This document shows positions 12,115 to 25,903 of a stretch of DNA of 64,000 nucleotides, piece by piece. Under the pieces are notes generated by a model, which saw only the letters and a list, made by a program, of their open reading frames with translations, was not told the origin of the DNA and searched no databases. Both the position numbers and the translations under genes were made by a program. Source of the stretch: Paecilomyces variotii (taxonomy: Eukaryota). Where the stretch lies: the NCBI GenBank assembly GCA_004022145.1, contig RCNU01000002.1; one strand, written 5' to 3'. Numbering within the stretch: position 1 is the first letter of the stretch; each line of letters opens with the position of its first letter.

Positions 12115-13222
12115 TTAGAAGTTGACGTCAGGATTCGGATTCTGAAGTGGACGGCCATCGACCACTTGGCCCCGGTAGGTGTTGGTATTCGGTCCAGCAG
12201 AGTCCACAGTGAGCGGGCGTTCATAAGAGACAGTGCTGCCCCTTCCGACTCCGGCCTCAGCCATCGCGAGGTTCTTCTCGCCCTGAGGTACGCGAGTGCG
12301 CGTGCGCACAGACGGCAGCAGGTCAATGACGAACGAGAGGACGTAGAATGTGAAGACCAAAGCGATCACTGTGTCAAATGTTAGTATCTATGACCCAAAA
12401 CCAAGCAAGACTTAGTTGAACGACATACCCCACTCCAAGACTGCGGAGGCATTTCTCCTGTCAGGATGTTGGTGACAGACACCAAACCCGATTGCGAGGG
12501 CCACCTCAATGACAATGAACGATAGCTTGATCCAAAAACTGGCGAAAAGTATGCGGTGCTGACCACGGTAGAAAATTCCCAGTCGGAGATACTCGAGACA
12601 GATGAAGATGGCGCTGATCAGATAAGCAACCCTGCCCGGAGCTGTCAGCAAAGAAACTGTCTTGAACAGAGGAACTGGAGAAGACGAACATGAACAAAAG
12701 AAGGCAGCCATCATGCACATGTGGATAATGGACAGTATCGTAGATAGACAGCAAGATCAGACCCAGCGCACCAGCGATGGAGAAGAAAATGGAGATACAC
12801 GCGCAGGCTTTGTCCCATTTGCCCTTGTTGGGCACCAATTTGCGTGCATGTCGGAGCCAGCGTTCAGAGAGAAATGCGAGATCGAGGAAGACCACGGTGA
12901 TAACACTGCCGGTAATGAAGAGAGGCTTGAGCCCTGTGGCTCCAATGTCGGATATATAACTAGACCCGGTGGTTAGACGGCGAATTCCATTGCAGTGTTT
13001 TTGCCTTTAATGATAGACGTACGCAATCGTCTGGGTCCTCTCCATGCTCACATAGTGAGGTGTCCCAATAGCAGCCCAGTGACCCAGCATTGCAAGGAGC
13101 ATTGCTAGGAAAAGAAGTCAGCCGTCATCCTTCATCCTGGTGGTTGGGGATGTGGTGAGCTCCATACCAATCCACATGCAAGCGGATATCACTGGGAATA
13201 TCCAAAACGATATGATCCACAT
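12115..13222 (-). CDS. sfk1: Sfk1 / Frag1-DRAM family multi-pass membrane protein; multi-exon
   Basis: Spliced product MWIISFWIFPVISACMWI...TIAYISDIGATGLKPLFITG...ERWLRH...LSIYDT..YPHVHD...SFWIKL...SAVLEW|VIALVFTFY. Confidence 0.85.

Positions 13223-13756: not shown

Positions 13757-13818
<62 letters not shown>
13757..13818. repeat. Poly(T) homopolymer, 62 nt
   Basis: Uninterrupted T run upstream of the sfk1 gene. Confidence 0.95.
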
Positions 13819-13819
<1 letters not shown>

Positions 13820-15131
13820 AGACGGGATCCGACGGGATAAATTGGGCCAAATCACGGAGAGAAAAAAGGGAACAAAGACCCCAGCCCCTGGAGTTGTCTA
13901 GAATGGGGATATGGAACTGGGGAAAGCGTCGAGATGCGTTGAGGCATTGCCCAGCTTAAAGCATGAATTCCAACCCCCTCCAGATCTCCATGACTTCACC
14001 GTTTTCGTTGCTTGCCGATTCAGTGCCGATCCGGCAGACGTCATTGTCCGCCCGTCTTCTTGCCAAGCGGGAAAGAAAAGGTTCGTTATTATCATCATTA
14101 TTATTATGCTACAGCAGCATCGCACCAGATCATCTTCTTTATATTCTCATCCATATAGAATTCCCTCCAGCCGATACAATTGAGGTCTGATTTCTGCCAT
14201 CTTCTATCTACTCTGGAGTCTATCTACCCTGATTTTCATGGCTCGTGCTCTAGTTCTATAATCTTCTCCAGGATTAAACATCCCGTCAGCCACCGGCTTC
14301 ACGGGCGCAGATTGGCGCCGGGAGGGGCGTCTCTTGGCAAGGCAACGGATACTCTTCTTCCCGCTGTGCAGAATATCTATAATAAATCAAAGAGAACCAA
14401 ATATTAAGTTACGATCAGACTGCGTGACGACCACATGTTGGCTGTGCAGAGGATATGGTGGGCAGCAGATTAAGCGCCAAGAGAGGTCCTGATCCTGTCA
14501 CAAGGCTGTATCCAGATTCCAGCGGCTCAGCCACGCTGCTTGGGGGTTCATTGGAATCCTCCAGGCTGGACTTACGATTCAAGTCCGCCCGTCACTGCTA
14601 AATCCTGATCTATTTCCAGAATATCTGATTATTTCAGGTGCCTGCATGTCCATGTCATCTAGTTACTCGCCATCCGCAGCAAGCTGACGATATACATAGG
14701 GCTGTGGCAGATCATCTGAGTGACCATATTTCTTGCGCATGCGGGATTACAGCTTGCCAATAATCGTCATGCGATGAGAATAAATCATAGTTAATTAAAA
14801 TAAGTCAATAATCCTCAATTAACCCTGTGTCTAACCAGGCTTCCTTTTGCATCGACAATTAAGCAACCGAACCAGCCACGCTGCCGTCGATGACAACCGT
14901 CAAACGAGGCCCAAGTAGGTACAAGCAAATCATCAGCTGTGATGACTGATAATAGAGAACAAGAGAAAAGAAAAGAAAAGCAAAGAAAAAAAGTGAAATT
15001 TCCATCCCAATGCAGACCCTCTCTATCAGAACTCCGTTACGTTTCTTTTGCCGCATAAGCCACGATGGGTTTGGTCAACAGACACAAGAGAACAAGACCA
15101 GATGAACAACCCGTATAGGGGGAGGACTAAA

Positions 15132-16448
15132 TCATTTCCGACGACCGCGCCGTGCCCGGGCCCCTCGAGTAGCACTTGCTGTAGTAGTAGCGCGTGTCTG
15201 GGCCCCGGTTGCGACTGGTTTCTCCACTGCCACCTTCACACCATTTCTTCCATCATCCTCACTCTCATCGTCGTCTTCGCTGCTGGAGTCTTCGCTCGAA
15301 GACTCCGTAGGGGCACGCTGGGGGCTCGTAGATTCCGACGAGCTGCTATCGTCAGAAGGAGATCGACGCGCGGCTCGATAGGGAACATCAGGAAAGCCGG
15401 CGACGTCTCTGCGCACATGGTAACCATATCGGGGATCCATCGGACCATAGGGCGGGTAATCTGCAGGGTCAAGCGGATATGGTACAGCATTCGAGGACGC
15501 CCGTGATCGAGGCATCCACTGAGGATCATCCGGAAGGGGACGGGGGAAGGCCTGGTATCGAGATGAGGAAGTTGGGCGATGCTCTGAAACGGAAGCGTAG
15601 CGCTGAGGAAGATGGGAACGGGGCGACGAGCCCGGTTGCTGCGCTCTGGACGACTGGGAAGATGGCGTTCGGGGTCTCTGAGAAGAAGAGCTGGACGGGC
15701 GACCTCCAGGGGAGGAATAATAACTGGAGGGTACACCTCTGGTTCTTGTCCACCCTCCATAAGGCTCGTCACTCGGCTGAGGGCGTTCAGCTGCCAAAGA
15801 AGCAGGCATGCTCTTTCGTTTCTCCATCTTGTCGGATTTTCCCTTCGTTGTCGGCTTCCCGTTCTTGCTCTTGCTCTTATCCTTGTCCTTGTCTTTGCTC
15901 TTGTCCTTGCGCTTTTCGGTCAGGGATGGTTGGCTGCTGGCACCCTTCTTCCGCTGCGTTTCTTTGCTTCCGGTGCTGCGCATCCTCCTCCTTTCCAGTG
16001 CATCCAGCTCTTCCTGTGACAAGCGAACATTCTTTTTGCCCATCAGCTGAGCGCGTCGGATCCGTTCGAGTGCTTTGTCCACCAGCCGCTCTTCTTTGTC
16101 CATCATCGCCAGCTGGACGGCATATGCAACGGTGCTGTCGGCATCGCTATCCAGGTTATAATCGACCCCCTCAGAAGACTCCGTCTCATCCTCGTACTCA
16201 TAACTCCGTCGCCTCGGCTGCCGCCTGCTGCCATCCCGTCGCAGACCATGGTATTCATCCAGCAGCGCACCACGATCATAATCATCCTCCTCGCTCTCAA
16301 TCTCCTCCACACGCGCTTCGTCAGCGTCATCATCCCACTGCAACCCTCGCCTCCTGACTTGTCTCCCCAGTTGTGCCCCTGGTGGTCTTCCCCATCGGGG
16401 CATATCGTAAGGAGTTCGCGGCCGACCACCTAGACCGCCTCCTCGGAA
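15132..16448 (-). CDS. -1 frame extension of Yip3: charged and Ser/Arg/Pro-rich region, 438 aa from the shift site (first in-frame ATG at 16403)
   Basis: The long ORF is open from 16466 to 15132 in the -1 frame relative to YIP3. It overlaps the YIP3 end, and its ATG lies only 26 nt past the YIP3 stop. Confidence 0.8.
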   Translation of the reverse strand, partial: FRGGGLGGRPRTPYDMPRWGRPPGAQLGRQVRRRGLQWDDDADEARVEEIESEEDDYDRGALLDEYHGLRRDGSRRQPRRRSYEYEDETESSEGVDYNLDSDADSTVAYAVQLAMMDKEERLVDKALERIRRAQLMGKKNVRLSQEELDALERRRMRSTGSKETQRKKGASSQPSLTEKRKDKSKDKDKDKSKSKNGKPTTKGKSDKMEKRKSMPASLAAERPQPSDEPYGGWTRTRGVPSSYYSSPGGRPSSSSSQRPRTPSSQSSRAQQPGSSPRSHLPQRYASVSEHRPTSSSRYQAFPRPLPDDPQWMPRSRASSNAVPYPLDPADYPPYGPMDPRYGYHVRRDVAGFPDVPYRAARRSPSDDSSSSESTSPQRAPTESSSEDSSSEDDDESEDDGRNGVKVAVEKPVATGAQTRATTTASATRGARARRGRRK

Positions 16449-16451
16449 AAA
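16381..16451 (-). other. Programmed -1 ribosomal frameshift signal: slippery U UUU UCC, 6-nt spacer, H-type pseudoknot
   Basis: Heptamer 16451-16445 lies in the YIP3 frame (GCT TTT TCC). Stem 1 is GCGGUC (16438-16433) with GGCCGC (16423-16418). Stem 2 is GGUGGUC (16430-16424) with GACCACC (16387-16381). Confidence 0.85.
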
Positions 16452-16954
16452 GCATTCTCGATTGGTTTATCCATAAGTGAAGCGTGACCGAAGACAGTCA
16501 CACCAGTAGCGCCGATGAGCCACAGGACCGTCGTGAAGGGCGAACCCAGGATACCCATGGGCACGGCAACAACGAGCAGACCAGTGTAAAGCTGGGATGT
16601 CGTGAAGCGGGCGAAACCCAGGTCGAGATCACGCCCACCCAGCTTGCCAATACCGTAGAGACCACCAGTGACCAGGATGATGACGAAGAGCAACATCAGG
16701 TTGGTGAGCAGGCTGTAGATGCTGAGCATGAGAAAGACGGCGGCATAGTTGCTGGAGAAGTAGGACAGGTTGTAGTTGACGCGACTCTGCACCTCACCAA
16801 AGTTGGCCGGTTTGGAGAGACGCTTCAGGTCCAGAAACTCAGAGATAGGCTTCAGGTTGGCAAAACGACTGCTGATCGATTGAGCGCGGACGCTGTTGAA
16901 GCGATCAGTGAAGCGCGAAGTGATCGCGTCGAGAGGGATCTGGAGAGGAGCCAT
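16430..16954 (-). CDS. YIP3: Prenylated Rab acceptor 1 (PRA1) / Yip3 Rab-GDI displacement factor, 174 aa
   Basis: PRA1 motifs LKPISEFLD..RLSKPANF..VQSRVNYNLSYFSSNY, two long hydrophobic hairpins, and GHASLMDKPIE. Confidence 0.93.
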   Translation of the reverse strand: MAPLQIPLDAITSRFTDRFNSVRAQSISSRFANLKPISEFLDLKRLSKPANFGEVQSRVNYNLSYFSSNYAAVFLMLSIYSLLTNLMLLFVIILVTGGLYGIGKLGGRDLDLGFARFTTSQLYTGLLVVAVPMGILGSPFTTVLWLIGATGVTVFGHASLMDKPIENAFSEEAV

Positions 16955-18000
16955 TGTGCGGTGTAGGGAGGGCCAGACTATAAATGCTCGCGCTGATGAT
17001 GAAAGCGAGGGAGAGTATTGACGCTCGATAGAAGTGCCGGTGCGTATACGATCGTGACGAGGCGGACGGGGAATGGAAAGAGTGAGCTGGCCAGAAGCGA
17101 TGTTTTGCAGGGCCGAGCCAGGGGAGTGGAAAAAGCTGGCCAGCTAACTAAGTAGCGGCTCCTGACAAGCTGGGCCAACGAGCGGTCGGATAATCGTCCA
17201 GCTCCAGCGAGATCTCGAGTCGTGTCTCCAGAGATATCAGAGATATCAATACTCCAGTTGATCGGAACCACACACACAAAGAAAAAGAAAGTGCTGGGCT
17301 AGAGACGAGTCTCTGAGACCTTCTGGCGGGCTGCCGTGCTGTCCACGGCAGTCTCCAAAACCGCACTGGGCGCAGAGAAGAAAAGGTTCTAGCTAGGGAT
17401 GAGGGCGATGCTGATGCTTTTAAATCGAAGACCAGAGACAAGTAGTAGATCCACCAGTCCACTGCAGAGCAGATCCTGCATCCAACTTCTTTCTGCTGTC
17501 AGCAGTAGGATAAGTCAATTAACTAGAGCGTTTCTTTATCCGCAGAGCGAGCTTCACCAGGCCCGCTCCATGGCGACTCTTCCAGCCTCAGGTTCCTGCT
17601 GGCAATCCCCGCGTCGTATGGTATATGCCCTCCAGGTTCTACACTCGAGACATTACTGAGACTGCCCTTTATATATTACCCTTTTCCCCTTCCCTGCCAA
17701 CCCTGGGGGAGAATAATGGCAGGATGCTGATTTGAAGCTGCTTGTCTCTCTTCCCCGACCTGTAAGTTTTCCCTGCCGCCCGTTATTGGGCCACGTCGAC
17801 GCACTACGGCAGCTCGAACGCCTCCAGGCGGTCTGGCAGCTGCTGGACAGATCATATCGCAGTGCAGACCCTGTAGAAAGTCTCCATCGATCTCCCACTA
17901 CGCTCGCATCTAACTTCGCCCTACCCTTTCTAATTCACTGGTACCATCTTTGAAGCCGTCGTTGGGCATAGCGACTGTGTTCGCACATTGCCAGCCCAAC

Positions 18001-19343
18001 ATGAGGCACTCGATTCTCCGATTGCTCGTGATTGCGGCCTTTGTTGTCCTGGTGGCCGCATGGACAAAAGAAGGTCTGTATTTCATTTTATCTCATCGAT
18101 CCCTTTTTGGATTGTTGCATTTCAAATCATGATCAATTGTCCCGGCTGACAGTATCTGTGGTCCCTTTGTAGATCATGAAATCTTCCGTATCCGCGACGA
18201 GATTATAGCAACTGAAGGCGCAAATGTGACATTCTACGGTACGACTCCTATCTATCATGCGTACTATTCCGTCTACAGCCCATTGACCTGCAAAAACACA
18301 CAGATTTCTTGGGAGTCAAACCTACTGCAAAGCAGGATGACATTAGCAAGGCATACCGCAAGAAGTCTCGAATGCTGCATCCCGACAAGGTCAAGCGCGC
18401 CTTCATTGCAAACACTTCCAAGGATAGGGCCAAGGCCAAGGGGTCCTCCAAGGGGCCTTCGCAGCGTGAAATTGCCGCTGCGGTCAAAGAGGCTACTGAG
18501 CGTGCTTCCCGCCTGAACGTCGTTGCCAACATTCTCCGAGGCCCATCCCGCGATCGTTATGACCATTTTCTGAAGAATGGGTTCCCCAAGTGGAAGGGCA
18601 CCGGGTACTATTATTCGAGATTTCGGCCGGGGCTGGGCAGTGTGCTTGTTGGTCTGTTTATTGCTTTCGGAGGCGCCGCTCACTACGCTGCACTCATTCT
18701 CGGATGGAAGCGCCAGCGTGATTTCGTTGACAGGTATATTCGCCAGGCGCGGAGGGCCGCTTGGGGCGATGAATTGGGTATTCGCGGAATTCCAGGCATC
18801 GATTCACCGGGTGCCACAGCTCCTCCGCCTGCCTCTGAAGCAGCAGATGCTGGTGCCATGCCGATGAACCGCCGTCAGAAGCGCATGATGGACAAGGAGA
18901 ACCGCAAAGAGGGCAAGAAAGGCACTCGCGGAACTTCGCGCAGCTCTGGTACGGCCACCCCAACGACCGAAGGCCCCGTACCCACCGGAGAGAGAAAGCG
19001 CGTGGTGGCAGAGAATGGCAAGGTACTGATCGTCGACTCCATCGGAAACGTGTTCCTTGAAGAAGAGACGGAGGATGGCGGCCGTCAGGAATTCTTGCTG
19101 GACATTGATGAGATTCAGCGCCCGACCATTCGTGACACTTTGTTGTTCCGCTTCCCTGGCTGGTTTTACCGGAGAACAGTGGGCCAAATGCTCGGTGGCT
19201 CGAAAGAGGAAGATGCCGTGGCCGAGGAGCAGGACGAGACTGCTGAAAGGACGGAAGAACCCGTTAACGACGAGGCCAGTACAACTGGTACTTCTAACGG
19301 CAGGGTGAGGAGAAAGAGAGGTAGAAGGGACAACAGATCATGA
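18001..19343 (+). CDS. ER membrane J-domain co-chaperone (Erj5/DNAJC1-like); introns 18074-18172 and 18239-18303
   Basis: Signal peptide MRHSILRLLVIAAFVVLVAA, then WTKEDHEIFR...TFYDFLGV...AYRKKSRMLHPDK (HPD motif), RYDHFLKNGFPKWKGTGYYYSRFRPG and a TM segment. Confidence 0.9.
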
Positions 19344-20978
19344 AAACAATCATACCCTGGGAGAAGCGTAGGATCTGAAAAGATATATGTGACTCTTCTT
19401 TATATAGACTTGTACAATAGTTCTTTCCCCACCACAGATCTTTGCTCCTGTCGTTTGTCCTGGGAGCAACAACTAAAACATAACAAAAGCATTGCGGGAT
19501 TTATCCCATCACAATAACACTTGGACTTTTACAAGTCATAAAATCCATCCACATATACATCACATATCCACAGGACGCTCGACTTGACCATTCAGCAAGA
19601 GTTCAGCCCATACATATAACAACAAGTTCCCCCTCAATTCAACTATTGCAACAGCCCTGATACAACACCTAACAAATGAAATCAAATCCTCAGCCTATAA
19701 GTAGCCGCACCCCAAATTCAGAAATTCACTAAACACAGAAGAGACACATGTCCATACAAAAGAAAAAGAATAAACAATCTAATCAATTTCAACTCAACTT
19801 TCCTTTCCATTCCATGCGACTCTTTATATCCCGTCCCTCCAAAGATTAATCCCCTCAGATCTTCTAATGAAGCAATGCACACACGACGCTATATTCTCCC
19901 TCCGTTCATAAGCGCGGCCCCCATCTCAGATGTGCAGGGCACGGCCCGCACCCGTGCCGTCTGGAGTCGGAGAATCTAAGCATAAAATGGCTGAGCATGC
20001 CGTTTATAGGCGGTGAATTTATGCTGTGTTGGGAATTATGTCGCTAGTGTGTAGTTAAGGAAGAGGTGGTTGGGTTATGAGTTGTGTCTAGGTGAGATGG
20101 CCTGCTAACTAGGTAGTTGAATACATAACGGTGAGTAATCTATACTAATCGTACTGTTGATTATGGGATCTTGGACCTAAGAACAAAATACTATAGTTGT
20201 AATAATAATCAATCCATACTTGCGGATTCAAGTCCCATGATAATATAAGTAAGGATAAAAACAATTCCCACATAGTCGCCCGAAAACACGGGAGCATAAT
20301 CAATCAATCGATCCATTTCTCCGTCCAAACATGATACCCAACTGATCAGATTATCTGACTAACTGGTCATAAAATCCCCTCTTCCAAGTTCCTCCCAAAC
20401 CCCCTTCCCAGCCCGCACGGATCTTCTACTTAGATTCTCGCGTGTACGTCTGACGTGGTCTGATCTGCTTTGCAGGAGTGGAACCCCACGAATAATAGTT
20501 CCGGGCAATATTAACACGGCGTGGATTATCCGATACGACGAACTATTTGTTAGTGAGTAATAGTATGAGGAGTAAGATTCGTAGAGGAGGCTTTTTTTGC
20601 TTTCTCTCTTTTTATTAGTGGCTTTGGGGAGAGGTTGGTGCATTAGGTACTGTGTGATGTATTAGTTTAGTTTGAACTGGAGAGCGAGGCGGTGGAGAAG
20701 GGTGTGGTCTATGTACAGTAAGTATATAACTAGTATCTTTTGGACTCTCTTCACGGTCTCTGAATCAGCATTGATTCTATATGCTCAGATACGCTCTTGT
20801 TCTTCTTGGGCCGTTGAAGTGAGATTGTGAATTCTCCAGATGGCAGCAACTGGCACTGCGTTTGATTGATTTACTCGGAAATCGAACCTTACTGATCTGA
20901 TACCGAAGTCTTCATGATAGTGTTTGTCGTTGAACTGATATAATTTGCTATAAATATCGTGGCATGGCAAGATTCAAA

Positions 20979-20980
<2 letters not shown>

Positions 20981-21035
<55 letters not shown>
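20981..21035. repeat. Poly(A) homopolymer, 55 nt
   Basis: Uninterrupted A run in intergenic DNA. Confidence 0.95.
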
Positions 21036-21036
<1 letters not shown>

Positions 21037-21357
21037 AGGTATGTGTCATCCAATTGTCGTCACGGGTATCATGCCGTCGCGGCTCGTTATTCTTTCATTC
21101 ACCCATACATCCATTGCACAAGCTCCCTTCTCTTTTTCTCTGTTTCTCGATCCGAAGAACTGATACAAGCCAATAGTCGTTTCCCATATTCCAAAATACA
21201 ATGAGCGTCTGCAAATCTCGTATCGAGATAGCGACCCTAATTCCACATCGCCTTCGTTCAATCATGGCGCAACCTGCACGGTCAGAGCCAACCGTCGAGT
21301 CTGTTCATGTATCGCCCGAATGAACTTTCTATACAGTGGTATGACAGCAGATATAGT

Positions 21358-25489: not shown

Positions 25490-25903
25490 TTGATCCCTGA
25501 GACGCATACGCATTTTTGCATTAGTTAAGTGTTGTCTAGCATATTCGCCCATTTACGTCGACAATATAGACAGAAGAGCAGTAGGACTCGTTTCCGTGGA
25601 AGTAAACATTTTATAATTAAAGATTATCAGATTGTGTGCGCATCTCTCATACTTGTAAGTATCGTCTACAGATCGCAGCTATATCGTAATTACCGCTTTC
25701 GTCTGAAGGCGGAGAAACCCAGATCGAGATCTCCGAGCTCCGACCGAATGGGGCTGAGTCAGCCCATCAGCCCGCAGGGCTGCGGAGCGTCATTCCTGCG
25801 GTCTCTAGCTTACGGTGAACCGACGACGTCCCCGACAGTTTGACAATGTTATCGAAGTTCCTTGAAAACACTCATTGCTAAATCATACATTCTTTCGTTT
25901 ATA

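Follow-up and report, generated by a model that had tools for sequence, protein, structure and literature searches.

The YIP3/PRA1 gene of Paecilomyces variotii carries a predicted three-stemmed H-type pseudoknot that, on comparative grounds, is probably the cis-acting stimulator of the known −1 frameshift in this gene. By comparison across orthologues the predicted element, encoded on the minus strand of the window (the whole 64,000-nucleotide stretch of DNA that was analysed), is shown to comprise stems 1a and 1b, of 5-6 and 6 pairs with a bulge of 3 nt between them, a loop 1 of 2 nt, a long-range stem 2 of 7 pairs, and stem 3, which stands inside loop 3. The locus itself is already known and is not a discovery of this work: in Podospora anserina, YIP3/PRA1 has been described as using −1 frameshifting at U_UUU_UCC with a possible pseudoknot 2 nt downstream (Malagnac 2013, PMC3777964), an account repeated in two reviews (PMC5009743 and PMC9375231), and has been presented as the first case of cellular −1 frameshifting in a gene with no relation to retroviruses. 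What look like an unpublished correction to this known system, judged from aligned sequences, are the long-range stem 2 and the three-stem form; the literature searched, with subscription papers outside its scope, held no later structural or functional study of the YIP3 element and no assay of its full form. The parts of the locus, in mRNA order, are as follows.

16430..16954 (−), YIP3/PRA1 zero-frame ORF, 174 aa from its ATG, with C-terminus ...ENAFSEEAV and stop UAG at 16432-16430
16445..16451 (−), slippery site U_UUU_UCC, a non-canonical heptamer identical to the site in PMC3777964
15132..16451 (−), −1 frame ORF, 439 codons counted from the slip site, giving a predicted long form of ~607 aa
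16439..16444 (−), stem 1a 5′ strand GAGGAG, taken as a spacer in the earlier note; its pairing is conserved, and it would be a spacer once the ribosome covers the stretch and presumably melts it
16433..16438 (−), stem 1b 5′ strand GCGGUC, pairing with GGCCGC in 6 pairs, one of them G-U
16431..16432 (−), loop 1 UA, the first two bases of the stop codon, invariant in A1 rows, as the search pattern requires
16424..16430 (−), stem 2 5′ strand GGUGGUC, forming 7 Watson-Crick pairs with GACCACC
16418..16423 (−), stem 1b 3′ strand GGCCGC, paired in the type A alignment
16415..16417 (−), 3-nt bulge GAA separating stems 1b and 1a, a 3-nt gap in 79/79 listed sequences though variable in sequence
16409..16414 (−), stem 1a 3′ strand CUCCUU, of which CUCC is invariant
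16390..16400 (−), stem 3 hairpin CCCC-GAU-GGGG within loop 3, paired in type A and missing from type B
16388..16389 (−), AA preceding the stem 2 3′ strand, present in 69/69 listed type A sequences at both columns, one of which is a four-fold site
16381..16387 (−), stem 2 3′ strand GACCACC, lying past the end of the published reporter inserts
16374..16379 (−), GGGGCA, candidate stem 4 partner of UGCCCC at 16402-16397, which would compete with stem 3 and is unproven

The zero-frame ORF contains PF03208 (E 5e-41), has a single match in its own genome and has its nearest named relative in Paecilomyces lecythidis (94%); a Pfam search of the −1 frame ORF returned no family. With a YIP3/PRA1 5′ ORF, an overlapping −1 ORF, U_UUU_UCC and a bulged stem 1, the locus appears to be the Pezizomycotina YIP3 frameshift locus, and it resembles PaYIP3 of P. 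anserina and other Pezizomycotina (PMC3777964) in gene, site, ORF overlap, bulged stem 1 and in-structure stop. The long forms of the window and of P. anserina match only weakly by BLAST (36% over 160 aa, E 0.13); their junction peptide, FFRGGGLGGRPR, is identical. All of the motifs proposed in the earlier note (slip site, stems, loops, hairpin, CUCCUU at 16414-16409 and UAG) lie on the minus strand where it had placed them, and the −1 frameshift site beside which it placed the knot is backed by experiment in Podospora (PMC3777964), P. anserina being the only species there in which the long form was detected by western blot.

Orthologues were collected with a pattern that stops at the stop codon, and every 3′ strand is therefore unconstrained; the pattern sets most first and second codon bases before the stop, which amounts to a partial preselection of the stem 1 5′ strand, and orthologues that end in a different C-terminus escape it, as may those of Capnodiales and Ophiostomatales, for which it was not designed. 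At least 115 metagenome loci and one locus from a genome collection were obtained, making 117 rows with the window; one weak locus from viral contigs was left out. After removal of 5 incomplete rows and of identical duplicates (28 rows over 100 nt, then 5 over 85 nt), 79 distinct sequences (78 orthologous loci and the window) remained, of which 69 are of type A and 10 of type B. From the named members of their clusters we take the type A loci to represent Leotiomycetes, Sordariomycetes, Eurotiomycetes and lichen-forming groups. For type B a single protein was searched; its best named hits were Tuber, Wilcoxina and Morchella (76-78%), and type B is probably Pezizomycetes. One locus, L118, encodes a YIP3 of fungal type on a contig in a bacterial metagenome-assembled genome; a protein labelled Lichina confinis is the same as this YIP3 throughout, and that bacterial assembly is probably contaminated.

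The slip site is fixed to a degree that the search pattern did not impose: GCU UUU UC occurs in 117/117 listed rows, though GCN and UUY were permitted, whilst Phe codons upstream are UUU in 65 of 217 cases in the listed rows. The heptamer departs from the canonical viral X_XXY_YYZ, being instead U_UUU_UCN, and its last base among the 79 listed sequences is C in 69, U in 6, A in 3 and G in 1. The 4/79 with A or G suggest that single P-site slippage fits better than tandem slippage, the mode also favoured in PMC3777964. All 74 listed rows that extend 95 codons or more past the stop are open in the −1 frame over that length, against 10/74 for the zero frame and 3/74 for the +1 frame; since neither of the latter is maintained open behind the stop, both +1 shifting and stop readthrough were rejected as candidates, readthrough being unlikely. 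Type A indels within the structure are multiples of 3.

Our case for the predicted stem 2 rests on its invariance, on changes that preserve pairing and on its survival in type B, with formal covariation contributing less. In type A, 98.1% of 483 cells are paired, with two-sided change at 3 pairs; a value as high arose in 1/500 shuffles, and slid registers are 14-68% paired. At least six unbroken pairs are present in 75/79 listed sequences, which supports, as conserved, the H-type pseudoknot with a long-range stem 2 and a loop-3 hairpin that had been put forward from the window sequence, the hairpin being confined to type A. Stem 2 has 6-8 pairs in 10/10 listed type B loci despite their different loop 3 (linker 16-19 nt, vs 23 in type A), and a U-A to U-G to C-G series is seen there. 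The best partner of the loop strand begins at nt 60-69 in 78/79 listed sequences, with a mean of −11.4 kcal/mol downstream vs −5.0 inside the first 59 nt. Past the stop, fixation at the four-fold sites of stems 1b, 2 and 3 is 94-100%, whereas 12 four-fold sites upstream average 45%; invariance near the stop may in part reflect protein constraint, since the stretch also codes in the −1 frame. Exceptions are an internal mismatch in 4/79 listed sequences (L007, L051, L052 and L100, of which L051 is from Podosporaceae) and a UAA stop, which costs stem 2 its outer pair in 5 of the 6 type A sequences that have one. Conservation and covariation of stem 2 had been proposed as a check on the knot: conservation was borne out, whereas covariation appears modest, with few independent events. 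The type A set amounts to ~17 effective sequences, a same-branch double change occurs at one pair only (26-74), the mutual information of pair 25-75 is 0.007, and in an all-column screen the stem 2 pairs rank among chance pairs, several column pairs outside the structure scoring equally.

In the same type A screen the pairs of stem 1 rank at the top. Stem 1b is paired in 100% of cells across the 69 listed type A rows, with two-sided change at 2 pairs (C-G to U-A in 2 rows, G-C to A-U in 4) and three single-branch double changes on a poorly resolved tree built from upstream sequence only. Within stem 1a, 4 pairs are invariant in 69/69 listed type A and 10/10 type B sequences, one further pair changes from G-C to A-U in 15/69 listed type A rows and is broken in 7, and the outer pair is retained in only 22/69. 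Pairing of GAGGAG with CUCCUU had been read as a competing fold; it proves instead to be a conserved basal extension of stem 1 that shares no base with stem 2, and since 8 nt, stem 3 and 2 nt still cross stem 1, stem 1a extends the knot rather than rivalling it. The bulged form of stem 1, with its conserved 3-nt bulge, is already described in PMC3777964. Stem 3 is paired in 98.5% of cells in the 69 listed type A rows, with zero two-sided changes, and both it and GCCCC are missing from 10/10 listed type B loci. The latter (e.g. L030:1440-1524(−), L069:1440-1524(−) and L008:827-911(+)) form a two-stem variant in which stem 1b has only 4 pairs and a nearly invariant AAGAUAU-like purine run stands immediately 5′ of the stem 2 3′ strand, where triple contacts are possible. 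In type A the AA at 16388..16389 could make minor-groove contacts with stem 1.

The geometry is compatible with such a fold. Loop 2 is absent and loop 3 is 30 nt long; the 2-nt loop 1 spans 7 pairs, and 8 nt, stem 3 and 2 nt span stem 1, lengths that we take to be sterically sufficient for an H-type pseudoknot. A scan of both strands of the whole window for a stem 1 of 6 pairs, a stem 2 of 7 Watson-Crick pairs and a loop 3 of at most 40 nt gave 2 matches, the YIP3 element and one at 25782 (−); the latter, 32 nt long and running downward from that position, lies in a repeated GGGCUG/CAGCCC stretch and is probably a repeat artefact. When the 90 nt that follow the slip site were dinucleotide-shuffled, 2/5000 shuffles held a matching knot and 0/5000 held one at 4-9 nt spacing, in a test that is lenient because the criteria were chosen with the finding already seen. 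The nested folding energy of 16381-16444 is unremarkable (z −0.47), and RNAalifold additionally paired the slip site with GAGGAGGC, which was rejected as resting on weak G-U pairs in invariant columns and as incompatible with stem 1. Rfam 15 gave no family at the gathering threshold, its 2 matches (E 1.7 and 8.2) being to snoRNA models far below it. A covariance model built from type A recovers 10/10 type B loci and has only one further, weak match in the window (E 0.31).

The distance from the slip site is 6 nt to stem 1b and 0-2 nt to the conserved stem 1a, so that a viral-type 5-9 nt spacer would exist only if stem 1a melts. About 6 nt past the decoding centre occupy the ribosomal mRNA channel. 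With a ribosome on GCU UUU UCC, the six bases past the heptamer would lie in this channel and stem 1a would already be melted; stem 1b and stem 2 would then face the ribosome entrance, 6 nt from the slip site, and resist unwinding. A minority of ribosomes would slip one base backward on the U run, miss the UAG within the knot and add 438 residues, whilst the remainder would unwind the knot and terminate at UAG. The 6-nt distance to stem 1b, rather than 2 nt, is thus probably the working geometry; as to stem 1a, we can only guess that it may assist folding or slow the oncoming ribosome.

Several known frameshift signals share parts of this arrangement. The three-stemmed coronavirus pseudoknot (Plant et al. 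2005, PMC1110908) is likewise H-type, lies 5-6 nt past its slip site and has its third stem in a loop, which is 29 nt long in SARS-CoV against 30 nt in YIP3; stem 3 is reported to be dispensable for SARS-CoV frameshifting, and stem 3 is absent from YIP3 type B. The likeness is one of topology only and no homology is claimed: YIP3, unlike the coronaviruses, has a non-canonical heptamer, a basal bulged stem, a stop inside the knot and a cellular gene as its setting. In the HIV-1 gag-pol hairpin, as described in PMC2794165, a 3-nt bulge parts a weak, readily melting lower stem from a G-C-rich upper stem, but that structure is a hairpin whereas YIP3 would form a knot, in which the melting of stem 1a is presumed. 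Edr/PEG10, in the description given by PMC3777964, is a pseudoknot for −1 frameshifting in a cellular gene, and its stem 1 has a 3-nt bulge as well; it is retroelement-derived, whilst YIP3, according to the same source, has no such origin.

Amongst the alternatives, a conformational switch had also been suggested earlier, and we regard it as unlikely. Its earlier version, through the GAGGAG/CUCCUU pairing, gains no support; if a switch exists, the CCCC strand might exchange between stem 3 and a stem 4 with GGGGCA (a kissing-loop form), or stem 2 might be lengthened by the three UCU/RGR pairs that RNAalifold adds (16434-16432 with 16379-16377 (−), ~68/69 listed rows paired per column), an extension that would enclose the stop and come at the expense of the uppermost part of stem 1b. 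Pairing of the pre-stem 3 strand with the 12 nt past stem 2 averages −10.3 kcal/mol, compared with −3.6 to −6.1 for six later windows; third positions suit it, with R in 31/32 Ala codons and Y in 25/25 CGN Arg codons, and the centroid nested fold computed for the window sequence consists of stems 1 and 4. Nevertheless, the strands of stem 4 do not covary (686/5000 permutations were as good), its register moves by one base between clades and the downstream stretch is G-rich; stem 4 in a fixed register was rejected, its column count lying below shuffles and the permutation test not being significant. The reported lack of the long form in P. anserina fruiting bodies would accord with switching, but the corrected, in-frame long form is missing from them too, which indicates degradation rather than switching (PMC3777964).

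That the knot is real yet serves mainly in another role (in mRNA stability, for example, or in controlling pausing or termination where it encloses the stop), the U run alone driving frameshifting, is quite improbable in our estimation. The stop does lie within the knot in every listed row, and in P. anserina the short form alone restores the wild type, which the long form alone does not (PMC3777964). Such a role, however, would leave aside the fixed distance between the knot and an invariant U run, the −1 frame that stays open across the structure where the zero frame is open in 10/74 listed rows only, and the restriction of type A indels to multiples of 3.

The published model, as we reconstruct it, places a bulged stem 1 2 nt past the slip site, adds a short stem between the loop and GCCCC, and combines low efficiency with perhaps a host factor; we consider it very unlikely to describe the full element. 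All four inserts printed in the Methods of PMC3777964 terminate in GCCCC, GCCCCA or GCCCCAT, and it is from the inserts as printed that we infer the short stem to GCCCC in the published knot. In its favour, GCCCC is conserved in type A, two short registers are 92% and 95% paired, and a 59-nt insert yielded 1% frameshifting in a yeast reporter vs 0.3% for the control. The short registers contain 0 and 1 two-sided pairs, however, and were matched by 500/500 and 38/500 shuffles, so that shuffles are not convincingly beaten; they are broken in the 9-11 rows where loop position 25 is A, a base that has a U partner in the long-range stem in 7; the short-range stem is worth ~−5.9 kcal/mol against −11.4 for the long-range one; and 10/10 listed type B loci have the long-range stem without GCCCC. 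Both short-range registers within the first 59 nt were therefore rejected as weaker and without convincing covariation above shuffles.

A by-eye comparison aligns the native 59-nt insert gap-free to 16453-16395 of the window, so that stems 3 and 2 both lose their 3′ strands (16393-16390 and 16387-16381, respectively). In P. anserina the long protein runs on as SPH-GGRPSRR, and the same residues carry the stem 2 and stem 3 3′ strands in orthologues, a correspondence drawn from the protein sequence only. Without these strands the 2013 reporter probably assayed the bulged hairpin alone, and the knot was probably absent when the 1% efficiency was measured. Both the long-range stem 2 and stem 3, as proposed here, thus lie partly outside the published inserts. 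A published short stem to GCCCC would also explain why Tuber melanosporum, for which PMC3777964 suggests only a stem-loop, should seem to have no more than this, whereas the Pezizomycetes-like loci here retain the knot. That study found, in addition, that the published knot failed to stimulate the IBV slip site well, and it proposed a host factor of unknown kind. An insert that ended before stem 2 could close would account for all three oddities of 2013, namely the 2-nt spacer, the 1% efficiency and the absence of stimulation of a viral slip site. It is conceivable, though we hold it with some doubt, that a complete virus-type three-stemmed knot with canonical spacing extends from Pezizomycetes to Eurotiomycetes and that its full form would frameshift several-fold above 1% with no host factor. 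If this is true, the full YIP3 element would be a model of efficient −1 frameshifting in a nuclear gene without retroelement origin. The corrected structure would support an RNA family model and would mend gene models that bridge both ORFs by an apparent false intron.

That the ORFs are spliced together, or that the second has its own AUG (16403), with pairing a by-product of protein conservation, is extremely improbable: 68/120 long database proteins are joined directly past FS(G/E)E(A/V), the pattern expected of a gene-model intron, but there is no joint within the region in the contigs of 4/4 runs (RNA libraries whose contigs may hold DNA, and so weak evidence), twelve P. anserina cDNAs are colinear (PMC3777964), the codon at 16403 is Met in only 15/69 listed type A rows, on which ground an internal AUG there was rejected as not conserved, and synonymous sites are fixed in the stems, contrary to a protein by-product. 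Within the set of database proteins P0275-P0394, a false intron across the frameshift element is probable in the 68/120, and only 1/120 of the long YIP3 models reads through the slip site; this one clusters with the curated Podospora proteins. One contig, from a run guessed to be RNA although its library may be DNA, covers 14800-17237 gap-free.

Elsewhere in the window, AGAGATATC occurs as a tandem pair upstream of YIP3 at 17229-17248 and resembles GATA-like sites; the contigs of one run break at 17237/17251. A DnaJ-domain protein is encoded at 18216-19343 (+), its transcription directed away from YIP3, and an exon of the Frag1/DRAM/Sfk1 family lies at 12506-13006 (−). Two poly(T)/poly(A) runs of ~50 bases or more, with poly-Phe/poly-Lys translations, are found at ~13770-13830 and 20960-21040.
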